From: an uncultured Actinomycetes bacterium
GTDB taxonomy: Bacteria > Actinomycetota > Actinomycetes > S36-B12
DNA: 52,260 bases
Assembly (NCBI GenBank): GCA_903832025.1
Contig: CAIKZY010000076.1
Span: 1-52,260 of the forward strand
Direction of reading: 5' to 3'
A program made the translations under genes and the position numbers. Shown in pieces: positions 9,884 to 41,232 of the stretch. Below the pieces are notes generated by a model. It was given only the letters and a program-made list of their open reading frames with translations. It was not told where the DNA came from and ran no database searches. The first letter of the stretch is position 1, and each line of letters opens with the position of its first letter.

Positions 9884-9963
9884 ATTTGCTCCTTGAGCGT
9901 GGTGAAGTCTTGGCGCATCGATCTAACCACGTAGAATGAGCGCATCAGGTGATATGTGCACGT

Positions 9964-9993
9964 ACTGTTCGGTCACTGTTCGGTCACTGTTCG
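9964..9993. promoter_or_regulatory. 11-bp direct repeats (ACTGTTCGGTC x ~2.7) in the divergent promoter region; candidate response-regulator box
   Basis: Units at 9964, 9975 and 9986 with helical-turn periodicity, ~80 bp upstream of the GT4 start. Confidence 0.45.
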
Positions 9994-10228
9994 AGCACGG
10001 CTCATTGGTGTTGTGCCACAGTCCGCCGGTCGTGCGGGTCCACTGGTCAGTGCAGGCGGAGCGCTTCTTCTCACCCAGCCGTGATGACATCACGCGGGAT
10101 GCGGCCGAGAACCTGAACTTGGTACCGCCGCACGCTGCACAGTCGATGTTTAGACACATCCGAACATGTCTGCGCACAATGCAAAGCGCAGGCAGTTTGG
10201 CAACGCCAATACGGCAGAGGGGGACACG

Positions 10229-23805: not shown

Positions 23806-24197
23806 AAGCTAACGGCTGAGCCACGTCCTGGCTTGACTGACGAGTAGCACGCCGTCGCGCACAGCAAAGCGCCGCGGTGGTCCTTGGTCAGCAGGCACCG
23901 ACGATGATTCGAACACGGTCGGGCACGTAACGAACTGAAGCCGCGTTCCCACACGGGGCAGGCAACGTTCGCGCACACTGCTAATTGCCGGGCACGACCA
24001 GCAGGCATGAAGTCCACAGGCCATCGAGCCCGCTGGGCATTCAGTGAGCTGCACATGATGGGCTCTGACGCGCCATGGTGGGGAGGCCATGGATCGTGAT
24101 GTTCGTCGCGGACCAGGGCGTGACTTTCCTTGGCAATTTCCCCACACCGCAGGTGCCAGTGCCGCACAATGGAGCCTCCAGCGTGGGAGGAGCCATC

Positions 24198-25733: not shown

Positions 25734-25902
25734 ACCACGGCACACGCCCATAGGCGGCAAGATCGCCGACCAAGACATGCCCGTCGCATGCCTGGCGATC
25801 GCTGGCTGGACATCTGCGTGCAGGACTCAGGGGTGGCATAACATGAGCGCGTTGAGGAGCCATTTCCTCGCGAAATCCTGATCACGAGTGTGGAGGCTGG
25901 CG

Positions 25903-26322
25903 ATGTCGACATTTCGACCGAGGCAGATGGGCATCGTTCACGACGTGATTGAGGGTCAAGTGCTGATCATTCGCAGTGACTCTGGCGCCTACTACTCGAT
26001 GGAGGGAACGGGCACTGTGGTGTGGGAAGGCATCCTGCGCGGTGAGTCAGTCGATGCGATCACAGCCAGCGCCGTGCAGCGATACCCGGATACCCCTGAA
26101 CTGGCAGCGGACATCCGGTACCTGTTCGCTGATCTGCAGCGCGAGCAGCTCATCGAAGAGACAACGAGCGCATCCAGCCCCGGCACGACAACGAGCACCC
26201 CGTGGCCGGATACCTGGACAGCTCCGGCACTGGCGATCTTCAATGACATGAAGGATCTGCTGCTGTTTGATCCGATTCACGAAGTTGGTCCCGAAGGCTG
26301 GCCATACGCATCACATGAGTGA
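25903..26322 (+). CDS. PqqD/RRE-family protein with C-terminal leader-like extension
   Basis: RRE pattern (IEGQVLII...GAYYSMEGTGTVVW...DIRYLFADLQREQLI), Ser/Thr linker, then WTAPALAIFNDMKDLLLFDPIHEVGPEGWP. Confidence 0.85.
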   Translation: MSTFRPRQMGIVHDVIEGQVLIIRSDSGAYYSMEGTGTVVWEGILRGESVDAITASAVQRYPDTPELAADIRYLFADLQREQLIEETTSASSPGTTTSTPWPDTWTAPALAIFNDMKDLLLFDPIHEVGPEGWPYASHE

Positions 26323-27316
26323 AGCCGATGCCGCGATCGCCTCGGTCTTGCAGCGCGCCCTGGCCGTCCAAGGCCTGACGCACGCCCAGGCTGCCTTCGG
26401 GCCGATGCAGCTTGAGCTCGGCTGCGATGACGATGAATTCGTGCGGTCCGTACAGCGCGCAGCGATCGCCGAGCAGTCGGCGCACGCGTGGCCGACCCTG
26501 CGGGTGCTGATGCTGACCGCTGCATCACTGCCGTTGGAGCACCTCCCGACGCCACTGCGGCCCACATTCAGGCATGCGGCGGTGCGCGTGATCACCACAC
26601 CCCGGTTTAGCTGTCTGGTCAATCAACACCTCCTCTGGGTCGCCGATCGTCAATCGGCGACGGTCCTGAGGTGGTCCCTGTCCTGCGAAGCAGTTCCGGA
26701 CTGGGAGTCGACCCGTCCATTGCGGTATGCGCTGAACTGGTGGGCCGCCGAGCATGGATCAGCCCTGCTTCATGCTGGCGTGGTCGCGTATCAGGGGAAA
26801 TCAGTCATCTTGACGGGAAAGGGAGGGACGGGGAAGTCCACAACCGTCTGCGCCTGTTTGGACTCACCGCTGTCGGTACTGGCCGATGATTACTGCCTCG
26901 TCCAACCGGCAACTGCTGATTCCGATGCCACCGCGCATGCCCTCTTCAGGGTCGGGCACGTTGATGCCCAGACAATCGCCTTACTGCCCTCACTGCGCAG
27001 CAGGGTCATCGTGGACGATCCGCAGTCAAAGTCGCTCGTGCGACTGATCGAGCAGCCACCGCGACCGGCGAGTATTGCCGCATTCGCCTCGATTACCCGT
27101 GCTCCCGGCGCGGACACGCTCATGCGTCCGACGTCCGCCAGTGCAGTGCTCCAGCAGGCAGCTCCCAGCACCATCGCACAAAGCTATGCCGGGCAGGAGC
27201 ACATCTGGCGAGTTCTGACGCAGATGGTCCAATCCAGCATCTGCGTCGATCTGCAGGTCGGCTCACTGTCGGACGTCCCGCAAGCGTTGCTGCAGACACT
27301 GCGGGACCAACCATGA
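26315..27316 (+). CDS. HPr-kinase-like P-loop kinase 1
   Basis: LLHAGVV, GKGGTGKST and LADDY motifs. Overlaps the upstream RRE gene. Confidence 0.8.
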   Translation: MSEADAAIASVLQRALAVQGLTHAQAAFGPMQLELGCDDDEFVRSVQRAAIAEQSAHAWPTLRVLMLTAASLPLEHLPTPLRPTFRHAAVRVITTPRFSCLVNQHLLWVADRQSATVLRWSLSCEAVPDWESTRPLRYALNWWAAEHGSALLHAGVVAYQGKSVILTGKGGTGKSTTVCACLDSPLSVLADDYCLVQPATADSDATAHALFRVGHVDAQTIALLPSLRSRVIVDDPQSKSLVRLIEQPPRPASIAAFASITRAPGADTLMRPTSASAVLQQAAPSTIAQSYAGQEHIWRVLTQMVQSSICVDLQVGSLSDVPQALLQTLRDQP

Positions 27317-28029
27317 TCACCCGTCCGGTGACCGTGGTCATCCCTGCGCACAATGCCGCGGGAACGATTGCCGCAACGTTGCGTTCACTGGGCAATCCCG
27401 CGCGCATCATTGTCGTCAATGATCGCTCACAGGACAGCACCGTGGAACAGATCACTGCATGCGGCATCGATGTTGACGTGCTCCACAGCACGCACCCAGG
27501 ACCTGGTGCTGCCAGGAACCACGGAGCGGTGCACGTCAGGACGCCATACATTGCGTTTTGCGATGCTGATGATCAATGGGTCCCGGGACGACTTGATGCG
27601 GACCTGGACATCCTGAGCCGCCGACCCGACATCGAGATTCTCCTGGGCAGCACCCGGTATGAAGCAACCGATGCAGCCTTGCTGGCCGGCCACGTGTTCC
27701 CCGACGACACGCAGAGCCAGGTGATCGCCCACTTCGGAGCGGCAACGATGCGCACGGCTGCCTTTCACCGGGTGGGTCCGATTCGCGAGGACAAAGCCAA
27801 CTTTGAGGATCTGGAGTGGTTCCTGCGTGCTCGCGATCTCGGTGTCGGCCTGGTAGCCCACCGCCGCATCGTTCAGCGTCGACTCATGCATCCATCAAGC
27901 ACCAGTCATGTGCATCCTGGCCGGCCCACGGACATGCTGGCGGTGCTGGCTGAATCGGTACGCCGCCGTGCAGACTCCGGTGTGGAGGTCCTGTCGTTGC
28001 AGGACAGTATTGATATGAATCTGCCATGA
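27313..28029 (+). CDS. Glycosyltransferase family 2
   Basis: VVIPAHN, VVNDRSQD, ARNHG, FCDADD and EDLEW motifs. Confidence 0.9.
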   Translation: MITRPVTVVIPAHNAAGTIAATLRSLGNPARIIVVNDRSQDSTVEQITACGIDVDVLHSTHPGPGAARNHGAVHVRTPYIAFCDADDQWVPGRLDADLDILSRRPDIEILLGSTRYEATDAALLAGHVFPDDTQSQVIAHFGAATMRTAAFHRVGPIREDKANFEDLEWFLRARDLGVGLVAHRRIVQRRLMHPSSTSHVHPGRPTDMLAVLAESVRRRADSGVEVLSLQDSIDMNLP

Positions 28030-29813
28030 AGGTGCTGTGGTGGACTGGGGAGTACCCTCCCGATGTCGGGGGCATCGCGACCGTTGCGCAACAGACCCTG
28101 GCGGCTCTGGCAGCACGTGGGATCAATGCCCATGCATTGATCGCCGCACGAGGTGACGAAGACGGCGTGGACGGCGCGATACCGCTGACGCGCCGGCCGA
28201 TTGCCGAATCGCTTATCGACAGCGACGCTGCCGCGTTCGCGCAGTGGATTGCCTTTGTTCGGAATTTCAAGGATCACCAGCGGGCCGATGTCTACCATGT
28301 GCACCCGGCTGACCCAAGCGTGCTCGCGCACCTGATGACCTTGTCGGCGCATCCTGCCCCGACCATCGTGACCTTTCACCAGCAGATGTTCTCCGTGCTT
28401 CCCTCCGCCGCACCCCAGTCGTTGATCGGACGACTGATCGCCCAGGCGCAGATTGTCACTGCGGTCTCGGCGGCCAGTGCGAACCAGGCGGTTGCGACAT
28501 TGCCGGAGATCGCCGACAAATTGATCGTGATTCCCAACGGACTGCAGGTGTCCGGACCGGTTCTTCCCCTGCCCAGTGCACCGCGGATCGTGGCCGTCGG
28601 TCGTCTTGTGCCCGTGAAGGGTTTCCATGACCTGATCCGGGCAATGGTCACCGTTGTTGAGCAGGTTCCCGACGCTCACCTGCACATCGTTGGTGATGGA
28701 CCTGAGCGTGGCGCGCTGGAGCAGATGTGCGAGCGGCTCGGCCTGACGACATCGATCACGTTCACCGGTGCGGTTGGGCAGGACCAGGTCCGCGCCCTGA
28801 TGGACGCCAGCACGATCGTGGCCATGCCGTCGACGGTTGAGGGCATGCCCATGGTGGCGCTGGAAGCATCTGAACGAGGCCGAGCCATCGTCGGTTCCAA
28901 TATCGGCGGCATTAACGAAGTCGTGCTGGATGGTGTTTCCGGTGTGCTCATTGACCGCAATGACGATTTTATTGACACCTTCGCCAGGATGCTGACCGAC
29001 CTCTTGACAGATCTGCAGCGGGCCGAGGCACTCGGTCTTGCCGCACGGGCACGCCTGGAAGACCGGCAGTCCGTGGATCGAGTGGCAGCCCTCTACGAGA
29101 TCGCGTATCGCGCGGTATGCAGCGATCGACCTGCGCCCCTGGTCAGCGTGATCATGCCCGCGCACAATGGCGAAGCCTTCATTCGACAAGCGGTTGAGTC
29201 GGTGCTCGAACAAGGTCTTGCAGATCTGGAACTCATCATCGTCGATGACGGCTCCACGGATGCAACGCTTCGGGTGCTTGCGCACGTGAGCGACCCACGC
29301 CTGATCGTCCTACCGCAGCCGAATCGGGGAAGCGGCAGTGCCCGAAATGCCGGCATCGCTATCGCCCGCGGTCAGTACATCGCCCACATTGATCACGACG
29401 ATCTGTGGCCCCATGATCGCCTGGCTTGCCTGTGGCAGGTGCTGGACGCGGACCCCGAAATGGATGCCTGCTTTGGGACGGCGATTGAATTCGCTGATCC
29501 GTCGATGCGTGGGAACTACGCGGTGCGCAGCGAGCCGAGGACCACGCGGTTCCCGACCACCGGACTGATTCGGGCTGCATTTCATCGCTCGGTCGGTCCA
29601 TTTCACAGCGAGCCCTTCGGGGACCAAGTGGATTGGTCAATACGGGCCCTGGATGCGGGTATGCGCTACGCCGAGCTCGCGAATATCGTCCTGAGACGGC
29701 GCATCCATGATTCGAACATGTCGCATCGAAATCCCCTCGACAAGGACATGAACAAGCTGCGGCTCCTCAAGCGCTCGCTGGATCAGCGCAAGGGCGACGA
29801 GGACCGGGCCTGA
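28026..29813 (+). CDS. Bifunctional glycosyltransferase (GT4 + GT2 fusion)
   Basis: N-half has YPPDVGG, VGRLVPVKG and EGMPMVALEA. C-half has VSVIMPAHN, VDDGSTD, ARNAG and IDHDDLW. Confidence 0.9.
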   Translation: MKVLWWTGEYPPDVGGIATVAQQTLAALAARGINAHALIAARGDEDGVDGAIPLTRRPIAESLIDSDAAAFAQWIAFVRNFKDHQRADVYHVHPADPSVLAHLMTLSAHPAPTIVTFHQQMFSVLPSAAPQSLIGRLIAQAQIVTAVSAASANQAVATLPEIADKLIVIPNGLQVSGPVLPLPSAPRIVAVGRLVPVKGFHDLIRAMVTVVEQVPDAHLHIVGDGPERGALEQMCERLGLTTSITFTGAVGQDQVRALMDASTIVAMPSTVEGMPMVALEASERGRAIVGSNIGGINEVVLDGVSGVLIDRNDDFIDTFARMLTDLLTDLQRAEALGLAARARLEDRQSVDRVAALYEIAYRAVCSDRPAPLVSVIMPAHNGEAFIRQAVESVLEQGLADLELIIVDDGSTDATLRVLAHVSDPRLIVLPQPNRGSGSARNAGIAIARGQYIAHIDHDDLWPHDRLACLWQVLDADPEMDACFGTAIEFADPSMRGNYAVRSEPRTTRFPTTGLIRAAFHRSVGPFHSEPFGDQVDWSIRALDAGMRYAELANIVLRRRIHDSNMSHRNPLDKDMNKLRLLKRSLDQRKGDEDRA

Positions 29814-30814
29814 AGGAATCGGATCCCGCTGCTCCACGGGGAAACTCGCGGAACAGCTGACCACGGCGGGCCTTGGCGGGCCTGCCGGATGTCATGGCGC
29901 CGCCGGGCAGCTGCCTGCATCCGCTGCCACGCCCCACCGGCAGCGATCTCGTGCAGGACGACCGCATCCATGGGCGCTGCGGACAGTTGCTCAATCACAG
30001 ACCGGGGAATATCGGCACCAACCTGACTCATGAGCCAGTTCAGTCCTTCAGCCACAAGTGGCCCGTACCCGCTGTCCACGGAATGTGCAAGGACGGACTG
30101 CCAAAATTCCGATGTGCGTGAGCCGTCCTGGAGCAACTGCATGGCATCAAGTGGCCACGTGATCGCTGCACTGGCGGGCGCCGTGATTCCCTCAACGATG
30201 GCAAGGGTCAGCAGACACCCATCCGATAGGGAATCCGCGACCGTGGATTCCATGGCTCCGCGTGCAAAGTTGGGCGGTGTTCGACGCAGCTGCGGGAACT
30301 CCCTGCCCCAGGTCAGCACCAGTGAGCGGCCATTGTCGTCAAGAAAGGCGCTGGTCATGCTGGCACGGGGACGATGGCGCATCGCCCATCCGTGAGCCGG
30401 CAGCACCTCCAAGGATCGCGTCCAGTCAGCGGCGCCAATCCACAGGTCGACCGTGGTGACCGGACGGTACGTGGACATGCTGGGGTCCAGCAGCAGGGCG
30501 CTGCCGCGGATCGGTCGGGCGGTGATGTCGTATCGCGTCAGCGCATCACGGGCCTGATGCAGGTGCAGCAGGGTCTGCTGATTGACCACCCAGGCTCGTT
30601 TCCTGAGTCCAAGGAGTAGCGGTGCGTCGGTGCCAAAGTCCAGGTACTGATCTCGGTGTGCCAGGTGATGGAGGATGGCGAATTCTCGGGATGCAGATTG
30701 CTGCAGATCATGTTCGGCGCGCCATGCGTCCCACGCCTGGACAGCGGCGTCTTCATCGGCCAAGGCTGCCCTCAGGAGCAGAGTGTCTGAGTCCGTCAGC
30801 GAGAGAATGCGCAC
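29783..30814 (-). CDS. Nucleotidyltransferase-family protein 1 (NTP_transf_5-like, degenerate motif)
   Basis: PIRGSAL...RPVTTVDLWI aligns to the LKG...R..GDxDL signature. The start (GTG 30814) is inferred. Confidence 0.65.
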   Translation of the reverse strand: MRILSLTDSDTLLLRAALADEDAAVQAWDAWRAEHDLQQSASREFAILHHLAHRDQYLDFGTDAPLLLGLRKRAWVVNQQTLLHLHQARDALTRYDITARPIRGSALLLDPSMSTYRPVTTVDLWIGAADWTRSLEVLPAHGWAMRHRPRASMTSAFLDDNGRSLVLTWGREFPQLRRTPPNFARGAMESTVADSLSDGCLLTLAIVEGITAPASAAITWPLDAMQLLQDGSRTSEFWQSVLAHSVDSGYGPLVAEGLNWLMSQVGADIPRSVIEQLSAAPMDAVVLHEIAAGGAWQRMQAAARRRHDIRQARQGPPWSAVPRVSPWSSGIRFLQARSSSPLR

Positions 30815-31037
30815 CGAGCCGCTCCTGTTCCGTGCCGTGATCGGCAGCGCGGCACCATTGCGTGTCGATGGCTCGCAGATGACCGCGTACGCGTGGAGGA
30901 ATCCTGGCACAGGTGCTCTTGGTATGGATCCACCGTGTCCTGACAGCCGCCACCGGTCGGCCGCACCGTAACGCCAAATGCTCGGCAAGCAACTGCATCA
31001 GCACACTCCGATGACACAGGTGGCACACTGGTGGATC

Positions 31038-32744
31038 ATGGTGGGCCAGACGTTGACCTTGCGGATCACTCCATCAGCGGCGGACTGCGTGGAGAATGTG
31101 TCCTCATCGAGGAACTGGACCCTTGACGATGGCCGCGTGCTGGCCGTCATCGCCGGTCCGCATGCCCTGGACCACACCGCAGTGGTGCAGTGGATGGATG
31201 CAGGCTGCCCGGATCCGGCACCGGTTCGCCAGGGATTCGCCGCGATCCTGGTCGACCCACGATCCGGTTCCACCCAGATGGCCAGCGGCGCACGCAGTGA
31301 GGTCACCCTGCATTGGGCCCTGGAGGGGCAAAGCCTGCTCGTGTCATCGCACCTGCGGGCGTTGTTGGAAGCGCAGGCCACACCGACCTTTGATGAGGAG
31401 GGGATGGCGCGCTACCTGTGGCGTGCCAGTGACCCTTCAGAGACGATGTATGCAGGGGTCACGCGGCTGCCTGCCGGCCATCACGCACGGTGGCGCCCGG
31501 GAACGCGGCCGCACCTCATGCGCTGGTTCTGGCCACAGCGCACGGACGTTTCCACTGCTGCGAACTTTCCAGGTCAGCTCGGTGACGTCATTGCCGATGC
31601 GGTGCGACAGTCACTGCCGTCAGGCGGCACGGTTGCCTCACATCTGTCCGGCGGACTGGACTCCACGACCGTGACTGCCCTGGCTGCCGCGCAGGTTCGC
31701 GGTCATGGCGGTACGATCCAGGCGCTGAGCCACCTGGTCACCCCGGAACGCTGGCCAGCGTGGCTGAGTCCTGATGCCGATGATTCCCCGTTCGTCGAGG
31801 CGTTTGTCCGAGGCACACCGGGTGTGCAACTCCATCGATTCGATACCCCGCGCCGGAGCATCCTGTCGGCAACGCGAGCGGTGTTTGAGGCAACGGCGTA
31901 CCCCATGCTCAATCCCATAAATGCCCCCTGGCTGCTGGACATCGATGATTGGGTGCGGGCCAACGACGTTGCCCTGGTCCTGACGGGCGTGCATGGCAGC
32001 TTGGGGTTCTCGATCACCCGAGGCCATCAGTACCGACGAGCGATCAGATCAGGCCAGTTTGGGCTCCTGAAACGCGACATGGTTGCCCGACACAGGCTGG
32101 GTGACCGATGGCGAAATATTGGCGCCACGACGGTGTATGAGTTCGCCCCGCGGGCCACTACGACGGTGTTGCGGGTAATCGGCCGCCATGAACCGCGTGC
32201 CAGCACAAACCCGTTGATCATTGCGCCCAAACCCACGGACATGGTCGAGCCAGGAGTCCACAAGGCGGATCGGGAATGGTGGAGCCAGTCCGTCCTTCTG
32301 GATCAACCGGCCCAGTCGCTGATGCAGTTCCCGGTGACAGGGGCGTGGGCCAGTGATCCGCTGGGTGACAGCGAGGTGATTCGCACCCTGTTCTCCGCGC
32401 CAGCATCGGCCTGGCTCGGTGACGGCATGGACCGCGCGTTAGCCCGACGAACGATGCAGGGAGTGGTCGTCGATGAGGTGCGCTTGCGTGCCGGACGAGG
32501 TCTGCAGGGCGCGGACTTCGGTGAGGCGGCGCGCAGCCAGGATCGCGAATTTCAGGAAGCGCTCGAAGAGGTCTCTGCTTCCCCGCTGGCCAACCGATTC
32601 ATCGATGTGCCCAGGCTCGCGTCCACGATGCGGCCGCATACTCCGTACGCCGGCCGATCAGCGCTGGACTGGCAACTGCTTGAAGGACGCATGCTCGGCT
32701 TTGGCCTGTATCTGGCCTGGATCGAAGGATTCCTGCGCCGATGA
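31038..32744 (+). CDS. Lasso-peptide cyclase (asparagine-synthetase-like isopeptide ligase, C protein)
   Basis: SHLSGGLDST ATP motif, YAGVTRLPAGH, LTG, DPLGD and DRALARRTMQGVVVDEVRLR. No N-terminal Cys glutaminase nucleophile. Adjacent to the RRE gene. Start uncertain. Confidence 0.85.
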   Translation: MVGQTLTLRITPSAADCVENVSSSRNWTLDDGRVLAVIAGPHALDHTAVVQWMDAGCPDPAPVRQGFAAILVDPRSGSTQMASGARSEVTLHWALEGQSLLVSSHLRALLEAQATPTFDEEGMARYLWRASDPSETMYAGVTRLPAGHHARWRPGTRPHLMRWFWPQRTDVSTAANFPGQLGDVIADAVRQSLPSGGTVASHLSGGLDSTTVTALAAAQVRGHGGTIQALSHLVTPERWPAWLSPDADDSPFVEAFVRGTPGVQLHRFDTPRRSILSATRAVFEATAYPMLNPINAPWLLDIDDWVRANDVALVLTGVHGSLGFSITRGHQYRRAIRSGQFGLLKRDMVARHRLGDRWRNIGATTVYEFAPRATTTVLRVIGRHEPRASTNPLIIAPKPTDMVEPGVHKADREWWSQSVLLDQPAQSLMQFPVTGAWASDPLGDSEVIRTLFSAPASAWLGDGMDRALARRTMQGVVVDEVRLRAGRGLQGADFGEAARSQDREFQEALEEVSASPLANRFIDVPRLASTMRPHTPYAGRSALDWQLLEGRMLGFGLYLAWIEGFLRR

Positions 32745-32813: not shown

Positions 32814-33071
32814 ATGAAGGTGATTAGAAGGGTTGGCGTGGTCGATTCCCATATTGATGGGCGCCTGGTCGCGTTGAATTCCGATCTTGAGTTCGTGGAG
32901 CTCGACGTCATGGGGGAGTTCATCTGGTCGCAGACCGCTACTCCCACCGATACAGATCGCATCGTCCAGGCGGTGACCGCCCAATTTGAGGTCGATGTTG
33001 CTACCTGCCGCGAGGATGTCATCCGCTTTCTCCATGAGCTCCACAGTGCCCACTTGATTGACCTCAGCTAG
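32814..33071 (+). CDS. PqqD-family RiPP recognition element (lasso B1)
   Basis: 85 aa, IDGRLVAL...LDVMGEFIW...FEVDVATCREDVIRFLHEL. GGAG RBS. Confidence 0.9.
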   Translation: MKVIRRVGVVDSHIDGRLVALNSDLEFVELDVMGEFIWSQTATPTDTDRIVQAVTAQFEVDVATCREDVIRFLHELHSAHLIDLS

Positions 33072-33174: not shown

Positions 33175-34164
33175 GTGACGTCATTGGGCGAGTGTGATTC
33201 CAACCTGGCGTGCCTGCATGGTATCCACCTTCGCGCTGACTTCGCATTGCGTGGATGGCCGGCAGCAGACCTCGCGAATCCGCAGGACTGCTGGACGCTA
33301 GAAGTCCATCGCGGGCAGATCGTGAATGCCGACCCGATTCAACGCGATCTGGGTCTGGTGACCGGCAACCTGCGCCACGAGGTCATCAGCGGGCGCGAAC
33401 ACGTAGCGTTGACGATGCGCAGTTTGCAGGACTTCACGGAAACAAGTATCAACGTTGATCTCTCGCGGCGGCAGATCAGCGTGCAGTGTGATCTGTGGTT
33501 TCCCGGAAGTGAAGCCCTTCTGCTCTACCTCCTGCACACCCGCGTCATCCCCGCAATCGCCGCGCTCACCCGGAAGTCCGCGGTACTGCATGCAACAGCC
33601 ACGCACGTGCCTGAAGGCGCGATCGTGATCTGCGGTCGGTCAGGTGTGGGAAAGTCGACGCTCGCCGCCGGGCTGATCAGTTCAGGTGCGCTGCTCTTGG
33701 GCGATGAGCCGATCGTGATCGATCGGGGTGTCCACCGCAGCGTGGCCCAGCCAAGCGTGCGATCCCTTCGCCTTGAGCAGGCGACCTTCGCTGCAGAGCT
33801 TCTTGCCAATCAGGGATGGACCAGCCATGCCGGACACGACAAGTCGGTCTGGTCCCCGCCGATTGCGGCGGGCCACGCCGAAGTGAGCCCGGTTGCCGCA
33901 GTCCTGGTTCTCGGCGAACGCATTCAGTCAGGTTCGACGCCGGATTTCGTGCGCCTTTCCCCGGTTGCGGCGACGCAGGCCCTCATGGATCAATCGCACC
34001 TTTCCGTCGACCTCATTGATGCGCAGGCCCGTCGATTCACCGCGGCGGCGGCCATTGTGGAGTCCACTCCGGTGTTCGAAGTGCACATGCCCGATGACGC
34101 GGACTCGATCCACTCGGCCGTGAGGCTGCTTCGCGCGGGCATTTCCGAAGCCGGCGTGCGATGA
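33175..34164 (+). CDS. HPr-kinase-like P-loop kinase 2 (lasso-peptide kinase-like)
   Basis: VLHATA, GRSGVGKSTLA and LLGDE motifs. Confidence 0.82.
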   Translation: MTSLGECDSNLACLHGIHLRADFALRGWPAADLANPQDCWTLEVHRGQIVNADPIQRDLGLVTGNLRHEVISGREHVALTMRSLQDFTETSINVDLSRRQISVQCDLWFPGSEALLLYLLHTRVIPAIAALTRKSAVLHATATHVPEGAIVICGRSGVGKSTLAAGLISSGALLLGDEPIVIDRGVHRSVAQPSVRSLRLEQATFAAELLANQGWTSHAGHDKSVWSPPIAAGHAEVSPVAAVLVLGERIQSGSTPDFVRLSPVAATQALMDQSHLSVDLIDAQARRFTAAAAIVESTPVFEVHMPDDADSIHSAVRLLRAGISEAGVR

Positions 34165-35333
34165 CTGGGGAGCACCATCCACAACCGAAGGTCGTCGCGG
34201 ATCCGGCCACGCAGCAGCTGCTGACTGAGGCCATCCGATATGTCATGTCAATCGAGCATGGCTCCCGACCGGCAGCATCCAATCTGTCGCAGATCGATCG
34301 CGCAGCGTTCCTTGCTGCGGTTCGTCGTCAGCGCATGGAGATATTCTTGAGCCCCCATCTGGAAGATCTGAGGCTTCCTGATGAGGTCTGTGAGCAGATC
34401 AGCGCGTGGGCTGGTCAGCTCAAGATGCGCGCCATGTCCTGCGCAGTGGCAACGCGCGAGGTCTGGGCCGCGCTGACTGCATGTGGGATTGATGCGCTGA
34501 TCATCAAGGGAATTCTACTCAGCCTGCAGACGACTGGCACCGTGGCCGGCAGAGGCCCCGGTGACGTCGACCTCTGGGTTCGGGGAGCCGACGTCGGTGC
34601 TGCTGCCGAAGAACTGCACCTGCTTGGCTATCGCCGAAGTGCCTGGGCACCCACATCGGATTTCACCACCTGGCGCGGTCGCTACACGCAATGGGCTGCC
34701 TTTGAGTTGCCAATGGACCGAAACGGCCTACCCCTTGACCTCCATTGGCAACTCGCGGGGGCACGCCATGGGCTACCGACGTTTGACGAAGCCTGGAAGC
34801 AGCGTGCCGTGGTCGATATTGGCGGCACGCCGGTGAGCACGTTATCCGCAGAGCATGCGTTCGTGCACAGCTGTTCACACGCTCATCGTGATGGCTGGGG
34901 CTGGCTGCGTTCATTGATTGACATCGATCGGCTTTCGCGCCTGGTGACGTTCGACCCAGCAACTGCCCGGTCATCACGAGCCGTCCGACTGTCGACTGCG
35001 ATGGCCTATGACGTTACGGGAAGCGCCTCGCTTGGTCCGTGGATGCAGTCGGACAGCCCTGCGGTCAAGCGCGCTCGGCGAATCGCGCACACCAAGCAAT
35101 CAGATCTCGGATGGTCTGTTGCCGGTGCCTGGACCGTCCAGTCGACGTGGGACTGGCTGCACCAGTCATTGCAGCTGACCGGCAATGCGGGCGATATCTG
35201 CCGGGTACTGTCATCGTTCGCGCTGCCGCCTGAGTTTTTCGTCGAGCCGTCCTCAGACGGGCCTGTGCCCGTGCCTCGGGCGCTGTTGGCCCGCTTTCGG
35301 AAAATGGCCCGCAGAGTCAGTCACCAGGAGTGA
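34161..35333 (+). CDS. Nucleotidyltransferase-family protein 2 (NTP_transf_5-like)
   Basis: IIKGILL, GRGPGDVDLWV, LDLHWQL, H..HA..DGW and LRSLIDI motifs. ATGA-coupled to kinase 2. Confidence 0.85.
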   Translation: MTGEHHPQPKVVADPATQQLLTEAIRYVMSIEHGSRPAASNLSQIDRAAFLAAVRRQRMEIFLSPHLEDLRLPDEVCEQISAWAGQLKMRAMSCAVATREVWAALTACGIDALIIKGILLSLQTTGTVAGRGPGDVDLWVRGADVGAAAEELHLLGYRRSAWAPTSDFTTWRGRYTQWAAFELPMDRNGLPLDLHWQLAGARHGLPTFDEAWKQRAVVDIGGTPVSTLSAEHAFVHSCSHAHRDGWGWLRSLIDIDRLSRLVTFDPATARSSRAVRLSTAMAYDVTGSASLGPWMQSDSPAVKRARRIAHTKQSDLGWSVAGAWTVQSTWDWLHQSLQLTGNAGDICRVLSSFALPPEFFVEPSSDGPVPVPRALLARFRKMARRVSHQE

Positions 35334-35829
35334 CATTGATGTCGTCAGGCTCCAGACCGGATGGCACGGCAAGGACCATGGTGGGCTGAAACCCGTCAGC
35401 AGCAGGTCCGCCTACCACCGCTCCGCGACGGCCAACCAGCCATGCGTGCGCATCCCAGGTACTGTCAGGGTTTCGACGCAGACCGATGACCACGACACCG
35501 CTGGCACCTCTGCGGCGGAGCATGATCTGGGCAGCTGCTGCCTGGGCCAGGCAGCTGGGCTGGCCGGGCAGCCAGCGAACGCCGCGATGAACAGCCCAGC
35601 TCACCGACGCCTCCAACTGGTTGTCTGCTGCTGTTGGCATGGTGCGGTCTGGGTATTCAGTCCACGCCGTTGGCACCGGGCGCACCGAACCGAGCACTCC
35701 GGCCCACCAGCGCATCGGCAGCATGGCGCGCGCGAAGGTTGCCAGGGCAATCAGCGTTATCGCTTCGCCGGTGAGCGCACGTCCATGCCAGCGATCGGCG
35801 ATCGGCGTCTGAGGTCCGTCAGTCATCAT
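35317..35829 (-). CDS. Lasso-peptide leader peptidase B2 (transglutaminase-like)
   Basis: SCLAQAAAAQIMLRRRG, VVIG and DAHAWL motifs carrying the catalytic Cys and His. Confidence 0.9.
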   Translation of the reverse strand: MMTDGPQTPIADRWHGRALTGEAITLIALATFARAMLPMRWWAGVLGSVRPVPTAWTEYPDRTMPTAADNQLEASVSWAVHRGVRWLPGQPSCLAQAAAAQIMLRRRGASGVVVIGLRRNPDSTWDAHAWLVGRRGAVVGGPAADGFQPTMVLAVPSGLEPDDINVTPGD

Positions 35830-35862
35830 CTGAAGCATACGTGCAGGGCATAGCATTCCAAC

Positions 35863-37623
35863 GTGGTCGGCGAAAACGAAGCAGGGATATTCGCGTCCCT
35901 GCGATCAGATGCGCTGTCACTGCTGCGCACGGCCTTTCGGCTCTCTCCGCGAAGAAGCGTCCTGCAACTGCTGTTTTTGAGCATCAGTGGATTTACCGGG
36001 AGTGTCGGCCTGCTCCTGCTCATTCCCATCGTTGACACCATCGCGCATCCAGGTGCTCGACTCACGCTTCCGCTGGTGGGGAGTGTGAGTCTGGGAGCCT
36101 TCCCGTTGTGGAGCATGCTCCTGGCCTTCGTCTGCCTCATTGGCGTGCAGGCAGCCGTTCAACGTCTTGGCCTGATTAATGCCATGCGCATCCAGCAGGA
36201 AATTGTCGATTTCCTTCGGCAGCAGGCGTTCAATGCTGTGCTGCACGCACGCTGGGAATTCATCCTGTCCAAGCGGCGAAGCGATTTCGTCGAAGTGATC
36301 ACCGTCGGCGCGATGCGATCAGGCATTGCGTTTCAGCAGCTGACGCAAGCTGCTGTGGCACTCGTGTTCGGCTTGGCAACCGCAGCCGTGGCGATCCTGG
36401 TCTCGCCGGTGATCGCCGGACTGTCAATTCTCGGGGTGGTCCTGGCTGGCTGGATTCAGCTCAGAAGCGCTCGGCCCGCATATGCCCTCGGCCGGCAATA
36501 CGGGGAACGCTCACGTCATCTGCAAGCGGTGGTCACCGACTCGATGGACTCACTGCGACTGATTCGAGCCCACGACGCCTCGCGGCTGTGGGCCGAGCGC
36601 ATGTCCGAGGCATTTACTCTGGCCCGCGATGTTCAGGTCTCGACAGTCAAGAGGACATCGGCGACTGCCGCGTGGACCTCGGTGCTCCTGGCCGGGGCAG
36701 CCGCGCTGCTGATCCTGATTGCGGTGCAACTGTCCGTACCGCCGACACTGATTATCGTGATCGTGCTGCTCGTGGCACGCATGGCACGACAGATGCAGCT
36801 GCTGGCCACGTTGTTCGTGCAACTTGCCGGATTGCTCCCTGCGGTGGGGGACCTTGCCGATCTCACCCGACAGGCTCGGGACTGCGCGGAGGTGCCGGCT
36901 GATGGACACGGTGACTCACTGGGATCCGTGGTTTCAGCCGATCCTCTCGTGGAACTTCGTCAGGTCACGTACTGCTATCCCGGGTCCCATGCCGGGGTGC
37001 GTGAGGTCAACATGATGTTGCGCAGAGGAGCAATCACCGCGCTCAGCGGTCGCACCGGTTCAGGAAAGTCCACGACGGCCGACCTGGTTCTTGGCCTCTT
37101 GACTCCGCAATCCGGCGAGGTCCTCGTGTCCGGCGAGGTGTTGACCTCGGCTGATCTTGCAGCGTGGCGGCGCCATGTTGCGTACGTACCGCAGGAGACC
37201 GTGCTGATTCCCGGGACACTCCGCGAGAACCTGACGTGGTCGGCGCCCACTGCTGTGTCGGACGAGCAATGCTGGAAGGCCCTGGACCGCTCCGCTGCCA
37301 CATTCGCCCATCAGCTGCCCGAGGGCCTGGACACCCTGCTCGGTGATCGCGGCGTGCGTCTGTCGGGCGGGGAACGCCAACGTGTGTCCATTGCTCGAGC
37401 ACTCCTGCGCGAGCCACAGCTTCTGGTCCTAGACGAGGCGACGTCGGCATTGGATGACGACACGGAGGAGGAGATTCTCCACCTGTTGTCGCAACTCATT
37501 CCTCAGGTGACCGTCTTGGTGATTGCCCATCGACGCTCGACCCTGGAGGCGGCCGACACCGTGGTCCACCTCAGCCATGGTCGTGAAGATGGGAATTCGC
37601 GTCGGCCCATGCGTCGGCCATAG
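35863..37623 (+). CDS. ABC exporter, fused permease/ATPase (lasso D-like)
   Basis: N-terminal TM domain, then GRTGSGKST, LSGGERQR, LDEATSALD and IAHR motifs. Confidence 0.92.
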   Translation: MVGENEAGIFASLRSDALSLLRTAFRLSPRRSVLQLLFLSISGFTGSVGLLLLIPIVDTIAHPGARLTLPLVGSVSLGAFPLWSMLLAFVCLIGVQAAVQRLGLINAMRIQQEIVDFLRQQAFNAVLHARWEFILSKRRSDFVEVITVGAMRSGIAFQQLTQAAVALVFGLATAAVAILVSPVIAGLSILGVVLAGWIQLRSARPAYALGRQYGERSRHLQAVVTDSMDSLRLIRAHDASRLWAERMSEAFTLARDVQVSTVKRTSATAAWTSVLLAGAAALLILIAVQLSVPPTLIIVIVLLVARMARQMQLLATLFVQLAGLLPAVGDLADLTRQARDCAEVPADGHGDSLGSVVSADPLVELRQVTYCYPGSHAGVREVNMMLRRGAITALSGRTGSGKSTTADLVLGLLTPQSGEVLVSGEVLTSADLAAWRRHVAYVPQETVLIPGTLRENLTWSAPTAVSDEQCWKALDRSAATFAHQLPEGLDTLLGDRGVRLSGGERQRVSIARALLREPQLLVLDEATSALDDDTEEEILHLLSQLIPQVTVLVIAHRRSTLEAADTVVHLSHGREDGNSRRPMRRP

Positions 37624-37861
37624 ACTTAGGCATGGAGTCCACGACACGCCAGCCCTATCAAGCCCCCCCTACCGCCCCGAATTGTGGTCGCCCTTCAGTC
37701 GGCCCAGGGGAACACCGGTCAGCCCGGTAGCGACGGCTACCTCAATTACGGCTCCGCACCGTTCTAACGTGTCGCATCAGGCGAATGCCCCAATACACCG
37801 AAGATCGACCAGCCACCATCAAGCCAGGTATATCCTGACCACGCACGCGCGTGCGGGGTCT

Positions 37862-37891
37862 GGTGAGCATCCAAACGGTGAGCATCCAAAC
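37862..37891. repeat. 15-bp tandem direct repeat GGTGAGCATCCAAAC x2 directly before the first precursor RBS
   Basis: Two perfect copies read directly. Confidence 0.75.
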
Positions 37892-37902
37892 GAGGGAGTC
37901 AT

Positions 37903-38034
37903 ATGTCGGACAACGAGCATCGCAAGCCATACGCAGCGCCGCAAACGCCGCGCGTGGTCTCGACGCTGGCACTGTCATCCGCGACATTCACGTATGCAGG
38001 GACAGACTCGGGCTTCTACGCCTCAGTCACCTGA
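37903..38034 (+). CDS. Putative lasso precursor A1, 43 aa: MSDNEHRKPYAAPQTPRVVSTLALSSATFTYAGTDSGFYASVT
   Basis: Translated by hand. GAGGGAG RBS, YxxP leader motif, one Asp in the core region; paralogous to A2 and A3. Confidence 0.85.
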   Translation: MSDNEHRKPYAAPQTPRVVSTLALSSATFTYAGTDSGFYASVT

Positions 38035-38258
38035 GCGATCCCAGCATGCTGAAGGACCGATACGCAGATCTCCCCGGTTGGCGTGGATCGGAAACTGAGC
38101 ACTGCAGTATGGGGAGCCGTTGGCTCACAGTCCGGTGGGGCTCGCGACCGTTCCGATCGAGACCGTTCCGCCGAGACAGACATTCCTCGAAGGCTTCGGT
38201 ATAGGGTGATGACCTGAGCATCAGTCAGGTCAGCTCGGATTGGTATTAGAGGAGTGTC

Positions 38259-38396
38259 ATGTCAGAAAACGTAGATCGCAAGCCGTACGTAGCACCTGAG
38301 GCGCCGCGCGTTGTCTCGACACTCGCGATGTCAGCTTCGATGTACTTTGGCGGGTCTGGAGCTGACAACGCCTTGTACTCTTCCACACCTGTGTAA
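38259..38396 (+). CDS. Putative lasso precursor A2, 45 aa: MSENVDRKPYVAPEAPRVVSTLAMSASMYFGGSGADNALYSSTPV
   Basis: Translated by hand. AGAGGAG RBS, same leader pattern and conserved G-x-D. Confidence 0.85.
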   Translation: MSENVDRKPYVAPEAPRVVSTLAMSASMYFGGSGADNALYSSTPV

Positions 38397-38612
38397 CCAC
38401 CTCGCCGAAGTCAGCAGGATTCCGAACTTCTGGGCGGACGGGTTCGGCACGTGAAGATTGCAGCGTGGGGAATCTCGATTCCTGGTCCTGCCGATGTCGT
38501 AATCGTTCAGCGGGAGACCGGTACCGCAAGTCCGACATCCAGCTTGGGCAGCAGTCGGGGAATGAATTGGATGCCAGAATGGTGTCCAATCGCATCGGTA
38601 GGGAGGGATTTC

Positions 38613-38747
38613 ATGTCCGACATCGCAGATCGCAGGCCCTATGTAGCGCCGGCCGCTCCACAGGTTGTCGCGACGATCGTGGGAGCGGCGGTGACCTACT
38701 ACGGTGGGTCTGGAGCCGATAGTGGTTTCTACGCTTCATACAACTGA
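38613..38747 (+). CDS. Putative lasso precursor A3, 44 aa: MSDIADRRPYVAPAAPQVVATIVGAAVTYYGGSGADSGFYASYN
   Basis: C-terminal part of track ORF 38451..38747. GGGAGG RBS before ATG 38613; paralogous to A1 and A2. Confidence 0.85.
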   Translation: MSDIADRRPYVAPAAPQVVATIVGAAVTYYGGSGADSGFYASYN

Positions 38748-38879
38748 ACGATCGACGCTGCGTGATCAGGCATGACCCCTATGCACCTGCTGTCCAGGTT
38801 CTGCCGTTGAGGACTTCGTCGCCAGGAAGCCAAGATTGACCGTGTCGAAGTCTTACTGGGCTCACGGTGGAGGAGGCCT

Positions 38880-39857
38880 GTGGACGTGAAGCACTCCTTG
38901 CCCTCAACACCGTTGGTGAGCGTCATCATTCCTGTCCAGGATCGAATTGATTTCCTGGGTGCTGCACTGGCAAGTGTCCGAAATCAAACCGTCCATGACC
39001 TAGAAGTGATCATCGTCGATGCCGGGTCGACCCAGGATGTCGGCGGGTTCGTCAGGCATATTCAACGGACCGACTCCCGGTTTCGCTTCGTGCGAAGCGA
39101 TGCCAGGCTGAGCGCGGCAGAGGCCAGAAACCTGGGTTTGCAGCAAGTGCGGGCGCCGTACGTCGCTCATCACGACTCAGACGACATCATGCAGCCGATG
39201 CGGTTGCACCAGCAATTGTCTGCTTTCGACGCACCAGATCTTGAGTGTGTGGCTGGATGCATGCTGGGGATGAGTGCAGCAGGACTGCGTCTTTCGACCA
39301 TGGCCTCGCAAGGGACGACGGATGCTGCAACGGCGATGACTGATCTAGAAGTCAGATGGCGCTTTCCAATTTTGATGCCTTCGATGACCTCAACGCTCAT
39401 GATGCGGACGCAAACCCTGCGGGATATGGGCGGATTTTCTACGAACTACACCACCTGCGATGACTATGTCACCATGGCTACTCTGCTTGACCGGGGAAGA
39501 GTCGTGCGCATTGGCGAATATGTCACAAAGTACCGACAGCACGACCGTCAAATTTCCACGTCGAGGAATATCGAGCAACAAGTGCAGCTGTCGCTGCTGC
39601 GACAGCGCATCATCGCCTCGCGAGTCAGCGCCAAGGTCGCACTCGGTCCGGTCATGACCCTCACCCTGCCCAACCTGCCCGAATCAACGACGCACCGATA
39701 TCACCGTGAGGCGCTGTCCCTGCTCGACGCGCTGTTAGAGAGCTTTCTGGACGAGCATCAGCCACGTGAACAGGATCAAAAGTGGATCCTGCACGACTAT
39801 CGACAGCGAAGGCACGCCTTGATGCAGCAAGCCGGCCTTCGTGATGACACCGCATGA
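38880..39857 (+). CDS. Glycosyltransferase family 2
   Basis: VSVIIPV, IIVDAGS, ARNLG, HDSDDI, CDDY and YRQH motifs. Confidence 0.9.
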   Translation: MDVKHSLPSTPLVSVIIPVQDRIDFLGAALASVRNQTVHDLEVIIVDAGSTQDVGGFVRHIQRTDSRFRFVRSDARLSAAEARNLGLQQVRAPYVAHHDSDDIMQPMRLHQQLSAFDAPDLECVAGCMLGMSAAGLRLSTMASQGTTDAATAMTDLEVRWRFPILMPSMTSTLMMRTQTLRDMGGFSTNYTTCDDYVTMATLLDRGRVVRIGEYVTKYRQHDRQISTSRNIEQQVQLSLLRQRIIASRVSAKVALGPVMTLTLPNLPESTTHRYHREALSLLDALLESFLDEHQPREQDQKWILHDYRQRRHALMQQAGLRDDTA

Positions 39858-39888
39858 CGCGGCAGCCCCGCCCACGGCTCATGAACTG

Positions 39889-40959
39889 CTAGATGACAGG
39901 GACCTGCCAGAAGACGGCGGACCAGTCGATTACCTGGAGCTCTGCTGTGATGTGGTGCTTTGCGCGGAACTCCTCCACCGCCGCACGGCAGGTATCAATG
40001 CAGTAGTCGTCGATGATGACGAAACCACCTGGAGTGACTTTCGCGTAGAGCGACTCCAGCACTTCAGTGGTGGACTGGTGGAGATCGCCGTCCAGACGCA
40101 GCAGGGCGATCTGATGGATTGGCGCCGTCGGCATCGTGTCGCTAAACCAGCCTTGCAGGAATTCAACCCGATCGTCCAGGAGCCCGAAGGCCGCAAAGTT
40201 CTCACGCACGTCGTCAAGCGAGACGGCAATTTTCCCTGCGGATTTGGCCCAGAACGCGTCATCGGGATATCGCTCAATGTCGGGGACCGGTAGCCCTTCG
40301 AATGAATCGCACACCCACACGCGTCGCTGCGGGTCTTCGTGTGCCTCCAGTACGGCCTTCATCATGATGGTCGCCCCGCCCCGCCAGACTCCTGTCTCGA
40401 CGAAGTCGCCGGGAATCTGCTCATTCATGACGTATTCAGCGAGCGCGCGGACATTTCGCAGTCGTGGAAAGCCAATCATCGTGAATCCCGGCATGCTTCG
40501 AAGGCCATGGTTGACCGCGTAGCCTGCGAGCAAGGAATCCACGTCGGGGCCTTGCGGGCCATTCTCGGGCGCCTTGTACAACAGGCCCAGCAGCGCGCGC
40601 TCGGTCAGGTCCAGGTAGCGGGCACGGAGGTCCCGAGAAGCCTGAGCGGACGTAGGCACCGGCTGGATGTCACCCTCAACGAGTCCCAGGGATCGAAGAT
40701 CCTCAGTAAAGCGTCGCACATCGGACTGAAGTTGTTCAGCTTCCGCGTCAAACTCCTCGAGCAGGCGACTGACGGTCTTGTCAACCGAGGATGTCTCGCG
40801 CAAGGCGGTCCACATCGAGCGACCAACCTCGTCAAGCTCGATGAGCTCCAAGGTCACCATGTTCACCACGACGCACGCTTGATCATCAAACTCCTCGTGA
40901 GCATGTGAGATCACCCGCACTTCGTCCCAGGGCGTTGGGGAAGATTCGTTGGTGCTCAT
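39889..40959 (-). CDS. RRE (PqqD)-TylF/MycF/NovP-type O-methyltransferase fusion
   Basis: N-terminal ~95 aa RRE (VVVNMVTLELIELDEVGRSMW...LLEEFDAEAEQLQSDVRRFTEDLRSLGLV). C-terminal TMIG, PGDFVETGVWRGG, DSFEGLP, GWFSDT, LRLDGD and IIDDY motifs. Confidence 0.88.
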   Translation of the reverse strand: MSTNESSPTPWDEVRVISHAHEEFDDQACVVVNMVTLELIELDEVGRSMWTALRETSSVDKTVSRLLEEFDAEAEQLQSDVRRFTEDLRSLGLVEGDIQPVPTSAQASRDLRARYLDLTERALLGLLYKAPENGPQGPDVDSLLAGYAVNHGLRSMPGFTMIGFPRLRNVRALAEYVMNEQIPGDFVETGVWRGGATIMMKAVLEAHEDPQRRVWVCDSFEGLPVPDIERYPDDAFWAKSAGKIAVSLDDVRENFAAFGLLDDRVEFLQGWFSDTMPTAPIHQIALLRLDGDLHQSTTEVLESLYAKVTPGGFVIIDDYCIDTCRAAVEEFRAKHHITAELQVIDWSAVFWQVPVI

Positions 40960-41232
40960 CACATGGACCCTCTCATTGAGTGCAGTCATCCGCGAATTTC
41001 CTGCGCGCGAACTCCTTGAGGTTACAGGGCGACTGATTCCAGGTGGTGGTGAGCCGCATGTGCGCAAGCAAAACTCCCCCTCGGGAGTCCGAAACCGTGT
41101 TCGGGCATGGGAATCACGGGCAGACCACGATGGGCAACTGCGATCACGCGGTCGCACTGGGGTTCAAGAAGTCACGCATCAACCGCACCCGGCCCGGCTG
41201 AGCCATTGCCCAGTAGTCCGTGGGGCGAAGTC

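Follow-up and report, generated by a model that had tools for sequence, protein, structure and literature searches.

The closest described relatives of the system treated here are the lasso peptide clusters of the paeninodin/pseudomycoidin type, found in Bacillota and some Proteobacteria, in which a Ser of the linear precursor is phosphorylated by a kinase (K) and the phosphate receives one or more hexoses from a nucleotidyltransferase (N; PMC8498205). We compare them with a tandem array of four small genes, A0 to A3, in 52,260 nucleotides (nt) of an uncultured Actinomycetes bacterium (contig CAIKZY010000076.1 of assembly GCA_903832025.1, forward strand, numbered from its first letter); this whole stretch is called the window below. 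Like the paeninodin type, the window has a split B1/B2 pair, an HprK-like K, an NTP_transf_5 N and an ABC exporter (D), and we consider it likely, from gene content and comparison, that A0-A3 are the precursor genes of a lasso-type peptide that is synthesized ribosomally and modified after translation (RiPP), made by a cluster at about 24.1-41.2 kb. The cluster is predicted to work like a paeninodin/pseudomycoidin-type system, although the Thr at the penultimate leader position, Thr(-2), the Leu of the leader motif YxxPxL and the C-terminal Ser are all missing from its peptides. In the paeninodin type the leader carries WxxPxL or YxxPxL with Thr(-2) and the target is the C-terminal Ser, whereas the window's leaders read PYxxPxxPxxV with Ser/Ala(-2) and its peptides never end in Ser. 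This cluster also adds a conserved family 2 glycosyltransferase (GT2), a methyltransferase of the TylF type fused to a RiPP recognition element (RRE), and between one and six precursor copies, and its host is an uncultured freshwater Actinomycetota lineage, unlike the hosts of the paeninodin type.

The BsfA-type clusters of Bradymonadales (PMC10368454) resemble the locus in other respects: both combine a cyclase (C), B1, B2 and D with K and N, and in both the penultimate leader residue is not Thr. In Bsf the kinase (BsfK) acts on a non-C-terminal Ser, and the positions Y(-17), P(-14) and L(-12) served to infer where the core begins. The Bsf precursor has Ile(-2), which was validated experimentally, keeps YxxPxL, closes its ring from Gly1 to Asp8 and carries phospho-Ser3 within that ring (PMC10368454); the peptides here have Ser/Ala(-2), Ala, Thr or Glu at the Leu site, a variable first residue and a conserved Ser in the tail. 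Precursors with Ile, Val or Ala(-2) have been predicted (PMC10368454, citing Kretsch et al. 2023), and the third leader "knob" is reported as L/V/I/F/A, its mutation mattering little for one RRE (PMC13381572). The preliminary description of the array, made from the letters alone, called the leader non-canonical; Thr(-2) and Leu are indeed missing, but each departure has some precedent, so that the leader is unusual and not unheard of.

Several other systems share single traits with the locus. Caulosegnins I-III come from three precursors of one cluster that, like the peptides here, are served by one enzyme set, with ring sizes of 8 and 9, whereas the possible sizes here are 9 and 10; they are proteobacterial and have canonical leaders, with no tailoring enzymes (PMC13352647). 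Metanodin is a metagenome-derived lasso peptide with Asn1 (PMC12670498), and no first residue is predicted more often than Asn in the family described below (15/63); the metanodin cluster is gammaproteobacterial, and the window's three peptides A1-A3 do not start with Asn. Clusters for linear polyphosphorylated peptides (LPP; PMC13381572) share with the window an RRE, a kinase resembling HprK, an NTP transferase, a YxxP leader and a setting of glycosyltransferase (GT)-rich loci beside lasso clusters, but they have a signal peptidase I of archaeal type and no cyclase, whereas here no such peptidase was found among the ORFs (open reading frames) scanned and C and B2 are conserved. The davasins show Ser O-glycosylation of a mature lasso peptide (PMC11912497). 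Literature text searches (titles and abstract starts) returned no description of this cluster type, with the supplementary Ile/Val(-2) alignments of PMC10368454 possibly including related leaders; no paper mentioning both "lasso peptide" and "TylF" turned up.

The precursor genes are as follows.

37632-37767, plus strand: A0, a fourth, divergent precursor paralog directly 3' of the ABC gene, frameshifted in the window
37903-38034, plus strand: A1 precursor, 43 residues, MSDNEHRKPYAAPQTPRVVSTLALSSATFTYAGTDSGFYASVT
38259-38396, plus strand: A2 precursor, 45 residues, MSENVDRKPYVAPEAPRVVSTLAMSASMYFGGSGADNALYSSTPV
38613-38747, plus strand: A3 precursor, 44 residues, MSDIADRRPYVAPAAPQVVATIVGAAVTYYGGSGADSGFYASYN

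The starts of A1-A3 are spaced by 356 nt (A1-A2) and 354 nt (A2-A3), and Shine-Dalgarno (SD) sequences (GAGGGAG, GAGGAG and GGGAGGG, in that order) lie 5-9 nt ahead of all three ATGs, in keeping with the preliminary description of ORFs of 43-45 residues with strong ribosome-binding sites. As also stated there, A3 is concealed in a longer frame, forming the last 44 codons of a 98-codon ORF that starts with GTG (38451-38747). The other two paralogs are 53% and 49% identical to A1 in protein alignment, and 15 columns are invariant (M1, S2, R7, P9, Y10, A12, P13, P16, V18, V19, T21, G33, D35, Y39 and S41), in agreement with the shared peptide motif reported before. A1-A3 are thus genuine paralogs, but their count, given as three, was too low, the frameshifted A0 being a fourth; the locus is better described as a four-gene array, with up to six genes in sister strains, within a wider, putatively lasso-type precursor family. 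The ratio of non-synonymous to synonymous rates (dN/dS) among the three paralogs is 0.25-0.33 (Nei-Gojobori, synonymous sites near saturation), which indicates that the precursor reading frame is under purifying selection. No other SD-bearing small ORF was found between the genes of 23.5-42.6 kb.

The array is surrounded by the following enzyme genes, all with open frames.

24075-25733, plus strand: AMP-binding (adenylate-forming) enzyme, 552 residues; PF00501, E 2e-92
30978-32744, plus strand: C, Asn-synthase-like macrolactam (lasso) cyclase, 588 residues with an SGGLDS ATP-binding motif; PF00733, E 4.7e-15
32814-33071, plus strand: B1, discrete RRE of the PqqD family, 85 residues; PF05402, E 1.4e-14
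33175-34164, plus strand: K, HprK-like kinase, 329 residues; TIGR04352 HprK_rel_A at E 1.3e-10 and PF07475 at E 2.2e-6, neither match reaching its cut-off
34161-35333, plus strand: N, NTP_transf_5 nucleotidyltransferase, 390 residues; PF14907, E 5.4e-32
35317-35856, minus strand: B2, transglutaminase-like leader peptidase (Transglut_core3), 179 residues; PF13471, E 7.3e-17
35863-37623, plus strand: D, ABC exporter with fused membrane and ATPase domains, 586 residues; PF00005, E 1.1e-31, and a weak PF00664 match
38880-39857, plus strand: GT2 glycosyltransferase, 325 residues; PF00535, E 2.5e-22
39889-41157, minus strand: fusion of a PqqD-family RRE with a TylF O-methyltransferase, 422 residues; PF05711, E 4.8e-83, and PF05402, E 7.3e-13

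The cyclase, RRE, protease and exporter families are all present around the A genes. The best NCBIfam match of C is the lasso cyclase model NF033535 (E 6.5e-20), and the B1 profile finds the solved lasso RREs TbiB1 (5v1u, E 6.4e-14) and PbaB1 (9x90, E 2.2e-12). The presence of C, B1, B2 and D around the A genes, together with the likeness of B1 to TbiB1 and PbaB1, supports the lasso assignment.

The assignment is further supported by the recurrence of the cluster together with its peptides and by their co-occurrence with the cyclase. The same cluster is found in three metagenome-assembled genomes (MAGs; G061-G063) of one genus in another family of the same order. At the three loci (L019-L021) the gene order is C, GT2, PqqD-TylF on the minus strand, K, and one to three A genes (example peptides: MSEREPYSKPAEPVLVGSVEMSQVTYSGSGADLSIYSSLT); in L020 and L021 the locus continues past the A genes with B1, N and a minus-strand B2, and L019 stops at a contig end just beyond them. 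K is conserved in all three, N is 41% identical in L020 and L021, the GT2 is 36-37% identical in L019-L021, and the PqqD-TylF fusion, which in L020 lies at 9232-10350 on the minus strand, is 48-52% identical across both lineages. L020 also has an AMP-binding homolog beside B2 (33% identity over 505 residues). In the window B2 is convergent with N, with a 17-nt tail-to-tail overlap, and the starts of B2 and the ABC gene are 6 nt apart; because the same N/B2 convergence is seen in L020 and L021, the odd orientation of B2 is a conserved trait. G062 has five tandem family peptides on one short contig (C313; L037, L039, L040, L042 and L044) and three more on contig C99, with a second cyclase match on C313, and it seems to hold two such clusters.

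The cyclase is rare. Only 12 proteins reached E<=1e-10 with the cyclase among 8000 scored candidates, and homologs were present in 6 of the 390 genomes of the order; strong family-peptide matches occurred in four of these 390 (G000, G061, G062 and G063), all of them among the six cyclase-positive ones. A profile of 47 diverse members scanned across the order likewise matched six genomes, G000 with 4 matches, G061 with 4, G062 with 8 at two loci and G063 with 1, while the remaining two (G051 and G272) gave weak matches (E about 1e-6) and no cyclase match; the same profile matched 0 of 400 other genomes in an even sample of the phylum. Profile searches found homologous peptides in other genomes and in metagenomes. 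A profile of the window's three peptides retrieved 5 proteins from a collection of 5.8 billion, including three that are the window's own or nearly so, as well as three metagenome contigs. With 17 aligned sequences, 23 of 95 candidate proteins reached E<=0.01, and among 1.84 billion representatives 35 reached E<=0.001, of which 31 are peptides of 41-68 residues, about 31 family clusters at 50% identity; P0036, P0044, P0053 and P0063, long repetitive proteins, were set aside as spurious. Three matches outside G000 in 61 close genomes (E 5.5e-4 to 0.01) are short or stop-containing and were attributed to chance. A scan of genome contigs with a window-type profile gave no family peptides, and no precursor was recognised at L022 (G291) despite two cyclase homologs, N, B2 and D. 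In a protein atlas the nearest named clusters are lasso leader/core families (score 0.82, a lead only). The labels of the sequencing runs that contain the stretch name lake-water, freshwater or aquatic metagenomes.

The 17 aligned sequences and all stored proteins shorter than 80 residues gave 63 unique peptides after removal of duplicates identical from the Tyr onward, and all 63 have the Y..P..P motif and the tail motif. In the 47 diverse members aligned, Y10, P13, P16, D36 and S42 (A3 numbering) are invariant and Y40 nearly so, and the ninth residue after the Tyr (Tyr+9) is V or I in 63/63. Y and P of YxxPxL are present and the Leu absent in A1-A3, as had been noted; across the family the Leu position (Tyr+5) is E in 25, A in 22, P in 5, D in 3, V, K and S in 2 each, and T and L in 1 each. 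The window has T, A and A there, Ala lying within the published L/V/I/F/A set and Glu, Pro and Thr outside it (PMC13381572). The distance from Tyr to Asp is 25 residues in 35 peptides and 26 in 23, with 27 in three and 28 and 24 in one each. A Gly two residues ahead of the Asp is present in 22/22 peptides of the distance-25 class (in a set of 36).

The core start of lasso precursors has been located from the conserved Tyr, Pro and Leu at -17, -14 and -12 (PMC10368454), and we applied the Y(-17) rule of that study to the family. The -2 residue then becomes Ala in 34, Ser in 26, Val in 2 and Thr in 1, that is, Ala or Ser in 60 of 63, and the first core residue is N (15), V (11), A (10), S (8), G (8), I (5) or another (6), with an aromatic at the third core position (Tyr+19) in 46/63. 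The Asp falls at core position 9 in 35 peptides, including A1 and intact A0, and at position 10 in 23, including A2 and A3; it is at 11 in three, 12 in one and 8 in one. When the anchor is instead a fixed 9-residue ring, the -2 residue is less regular (A 29, S 19, E 9, N 3, G 2, L 1), and with an 8- or 7-residue ring it is variable. The coincidence of the leader rule with a 9-residue ring in the majority of peptides is the main independent argument for the Asp as the putative macrolactam acceptor, and the best reading is that these are probable lasso precursors whose leader is PYxxPxxPxxV with Ser/Ala(-2).

For A1 the rule predicts a leader of residues 1-26 with S25 at -2, cleavage between LALSS and ATFTYAGTD, and the core ATFTYAGTDSGFYASVT with a 9-residue ring from A27 to D35. 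For A2, in which Tyr and Asp are 26 apart, the predicted cut lies between LAMSA and SMYFGGSGAD (S25 at -2), giving a 10-residue ring from S27, or one of 9 from M28 if the cut is one residue later; for A3 it lies between IVGAA and VTYYGGSGAD (A25 at -2), giving 10 from V27 or 9 from T28. Thr is absent from the predicted -2 position in all three. The only acidic residue of each core is D35 in A1 and D36 in A2 and A3, which puts T21, the one Thr common to all three, 14 residues away in A1 and 15 in the others; the counts given previously are correct, and so is the view that T21 is too far for the usual Thr(-2), with no Thr two residues before any ring-compatible start. The starts proposed earlier (A27/T28/F29, M28/Y29/F30 and T28/Y29/Y30) also hold by counting. 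T21 as a displaced Thr(-2) was rejected, the site being T in 23, S in 22, A in 15, K in 2 and E in 1 of the 63 peptides. On the enzyme side, the TbiB1 Tyr within ...TYFGLD... corresponds to a Tyr in two B1 proteins of the Ser(-2) lineage (three proteins compared), and the same site is Phe27 in the window's B1, most of whose substrates carry Ala(-2); an RRE Tyr, perhaps this one, is suspected of contact with Thr(-2) (PMC10368454).

If the cluster does make a lasso-type product, its assembly might proceed as follows. The leader R-x-P-Y-x-x-P-x-x-P-x-x-V would be bound by B1 through its Tyr and Pro knobs, as in the TbiB1 or PbaB1 complexes (PMC13381572), and K would phosphorylate a tail Ser while the leader is still attached. 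The kinase most likely targets the invariant Ser that lies six residues beyond the Asp, and we take this Ser as the phospho-acceptor because it is the only invariant hydroxyl residue in the cores; it sits 2-4 residues before the end of the window's peptides, whose C-termini are VT, PV and YN (final residues T, V and N), so that the earlier remarks that the tails do not end in Ser and that the kinase target differs from that of paeninodin both agree with this prediction. The tail Ser is probably phosphorylated, then glycosylated and methylated: N and GT2 would add the sugar(s), with the conserved GT2 extending the glycan. TylF-family enzymes are sugar O-methyltransferases, and the one encoded here may O-methylate the product or its glycan, guided to the leader-bearing substrate by its own RRE. 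B2 would then cleave after the residue that follows Ser/Ala(-2), 17 residues past the Tyr, and C would join the new N-terminus to the Asp in a 9-residue ring in A1 and A0, and in A2 and A3 in one of 9 if the cut shifts by one residue, or otherwise of 10. A tail of 8-10 residues would remain, with its aromatics (F/L-Y) or the modified Ser as plugs, and D would export the product; with one enzyme set acting on several hypervariable cores, a small product library would result.

A number of observations weigh against this interpretation. Thr(-2) and Leu(-12), both held important for processing, are absent, and the predicted first residues (A, S/M and V/T in the window; N, V, A, S and G in the family) are mostly unusual. 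The 10-residue ring that the Y(-17) rule gives for A2 and A3 exceeds the 7-9 residues stated for natural rings in bioRxiv 10.1101/2020.11.25.399105. C is a weak match to NF033535, at 71 bits for a cut-off of 525; C and B2 have no relative in PDB by phmmer, the family profile found no PDB chain, and A1-A3 matched 0 families among the curated models of NCBIfam (E<=1) and Pfam (E<=10). In sister contigs the A1 orthologs are damaged: that of L008 (412-543) has His in place of the Asp and no acidic core residue, and that of L010 (1138-1236) is truncated by a premature stop. The ortholog comparison is moreover low-powered, the spacers beside A3 being 97% identical and A3 itself 99.3%.

The ring sizes allow a more specific proposal, namely that the leader sets a fixed cut and one cyclase closes predicted rings of 9 residues in A1 and A0, 10 in A2 and A3 and 11 in two relatives. 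The aromatic at Tyr+19 is kept in both distance classes, in 19/22 and 11/12. Because this aromatic is fixed in both, the extra residue of the 26-class lies between it and the Asp, inside the ring segment, and this, with the leader end S/A-x unchanged, is the basis of the proposal. An unnatural 10-mer ring, besides aromatic first residues, is reported for the fusilassin system, natural rings being 7-9 (bioRxiv 10.1101/2020.11.25.399105), and a search by title and abstract start found no report of a natural 10-residue lasso ring. We regard this proposal as unlikely; if it is true, these would be the first natural lasso peptides with rings of more than nine residues, and a phospho-glycosyl-methyl group on the tail Ser could act as the lower plug for the wider ring.

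The same aromatic could instead be read as the first ring residue of a lasso precursor that is cut two residues further on, which would give a 7-residue ring at distance 25 and an 8-residue ring at distance 26 (from Y29 in A2 and A3). Its presence at Tyr+19 in 46/63 peptides and in both classes, the known aromatic first residues Trp1 of fusilassin and cellulassin and Tyr1 of halolassin (bioRxiv 10.1101/2020.11.25.399105) and a Gly-rich stretch before the Asp that suits a small ring all speak for such a cut. However, such a cut would place at -2 the highly variable Tyr+17 (N, V, A, S, G, I and others), the RRE-binding Tyr would be at -19 or -20, outside the reported -15 to -17 (PMC10368454, PMC13381572), and the ring size would still be unequal between the classes. 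We therefore give this alternative little credence.

Equally improbable, in our judgement, is that the products are linear phosphorylated, glycosylated and methylated peptides resembling LPP, the essential product being made by RRE-guided K, N, GT2 and TylF, with a cyclase homolog that has no ring-forming role on them. In favour of this, the window contains three RRE domains and four GT domains, besides two HprK-like kinases and two NTP_transf_5-like proteins; the tail Ser matches the Asp in invariance, one A1 ortholog has no Asp, and RRE, HprK and NTP transferase are common to LPP clusters, which frequently adjoin lasso clusters in GT-rich loci (PMC13381572). However, C, B1 and B2 are conserved together with the peptides across two lineages, the Asp is invariant and stands at a ring-compatible distance from the leader motif, and there is no second candidate precursor for the lasso enzymes; signal peptidase I, the hallmark of LPP clusters, was not found (peptidase S26 and SipW families, ORFs scanned at 14.6-48.3 kb). 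That the array is decaying and unexpressed, its former precursors giving no product in this strain, is highly improbable: A0 is frameshifted in the window, A1 orthologs are damaged, two copies present in L008 are missing, no promoter- or terminator-like site was found in 37500-39000 and transcription evidence is thin, but A2 and A3 are intact with SD sites in the window, L008 and L009, all enzyme genes are open, paralog dN/dS is 0.25-0.33, and the A0 frameshift lies in a homopolymer, is perhaps an assembly error and has an intact form of the same allele on record.

The reading of A0-A3 as lasso-type precursors is thus preferred, and the array itself is in flux. A0 was recognised by the family profile (segment 37663-37761, E 4.2e-7) and spans two frames in the window, where a run of 7 C (37663-37669) stands against 6 C in two of the related metagenome contigs compared with it (L008 and L010, besides L009); in these two A0 is intact, with 44 residues, MESTTRQPYQAPLPPRIVVALQAAQGNTGQPGSDGYLNYGSAPF. 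A contig of run X3 has 1 nt fewer at 37663, run X1, the best holder of the stretch, has no cover there, and P0032 is an intact A0 form carrying the window's QSAQ allele; because of the X3 contig and the P0032 allele, a homopolymer assembly error is as likely as a genuine frameshift. Between the end of the ABC gene and the start of GT2, L008 has six copies, A0, A1, two extra, A2 and A3; the two extra ones are missing from the window, with the junction within a repeated spacer-plus-leader unit (blastn). The A1 ortholog differs from the window's A1 by 8 non-synonymous and 3 synonymous codon differences, A0 differs between L008 and L010 by 0 non-synonymous and 2 synonymous changes, and A3 differs between the window and L008 and L009 by one substitution in 135 nt (1 non-synonymous, 0 synonymous), A0 and A3 being stable in this comparison. 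As read from these contigs, precursor copies have been inactivated independently among close strains. The pattern is mirrored, A1 being decayed and A0 intact in L008 and L010, and A0 frameshifted and A1 intact in the window.

These results bear on more than one locus. The 63 peptides define an unnamed and testable family of putative lasso-type precursors in uncultured freshwater actinobacteria, an unusual host group in that the carriers of the cluster, 4 of 390 genomes searched in one order of Actinomycetota, include freshwater MAGs with small genomes, from organisms not commonly regarded as makers of natural products. The family amounts to a natural experiment on leader processing: Ser/Ala takes the place of Thr(-2), and Ala, Glu or Thr that of the Leu knob, beside a new invariant Pro; Asn, Val and Ser occur among the first residues, and rings of more than nine residues may be formed. 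As candidate tailoring enzymes, the conserved GT2 and the TylF-type methyltransferase with its fused RRE suggest a phospho-glycan-methyl decoration, of which literature searches found no report on lasso peptides. Because precursor copies are gained, lost and inactivated from one close strain to another, the diversification of the cores can be observed directly.

Transcription was covered by short RNA-library contigs from two libraries of two studies, at 38315-38559 and 38318-38468 only; these segments correspond to the 3' half of A2 and the following spacer, DNA carry-over is possible, and missing cover at other positions carries no information. A scan of 37500-39000 found 0 promoters and 0 terminators, and the spacers fold no better than shuffled sequences (z -1.9 and -0.85). 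Two small features lie 5' of A1. An exact 15-nt tandem duplication (GGTGAGCATCCAAAC twice, 37862-37891) stands just ahead of its ribosome-binding site, and the unit is single-copy in L008, L010 and a run X3 contig. Between A0 and A1, at 37834-37863, there is a 17-nt palindrome, 88% complementary and with overlapping arms, which could be a candidate hairpin or operator.

Between the AMP-binding gene and C lies a second RRE-kinase-glycosyltransferase module (25888-30988), assigned by Pfam and NCBIfam scans.

25888-26322, plus strand: PqqD protein
26267-27316, plus strand: HprK-like protein
27313-28029, plus strand: GT2
28026-29813, plus strand: GT4+GT2 fusion
29783-30988, minus strand: NTP_transf_5, a weak match

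Compared with L019-L021, only the GT domains of this module match, and they fall on the GT2 of those clusters. The module is a candidate part of the pathway. Its enzymes are much like those of LPP clusters, but the ORFs scanned included no signal peptidase I. A 150-codon ORF at 39841-40293 on the plus strand was rejected as a gene: it is antisense to the conserved PqqD-TylF gene, matches no Pfam family, and its tblastn matches in L019-L021 are all antisense to the PqqD-TylF gene, so that it is probably a shadow frame. Finally, just upstream of the related G063 cluster, L020 encodes on its minus strand (3997-5625) a phosphoenolpyruvate (PEP) mutase fused to NTP_transf_3, which suggests phosphonate chemistry.

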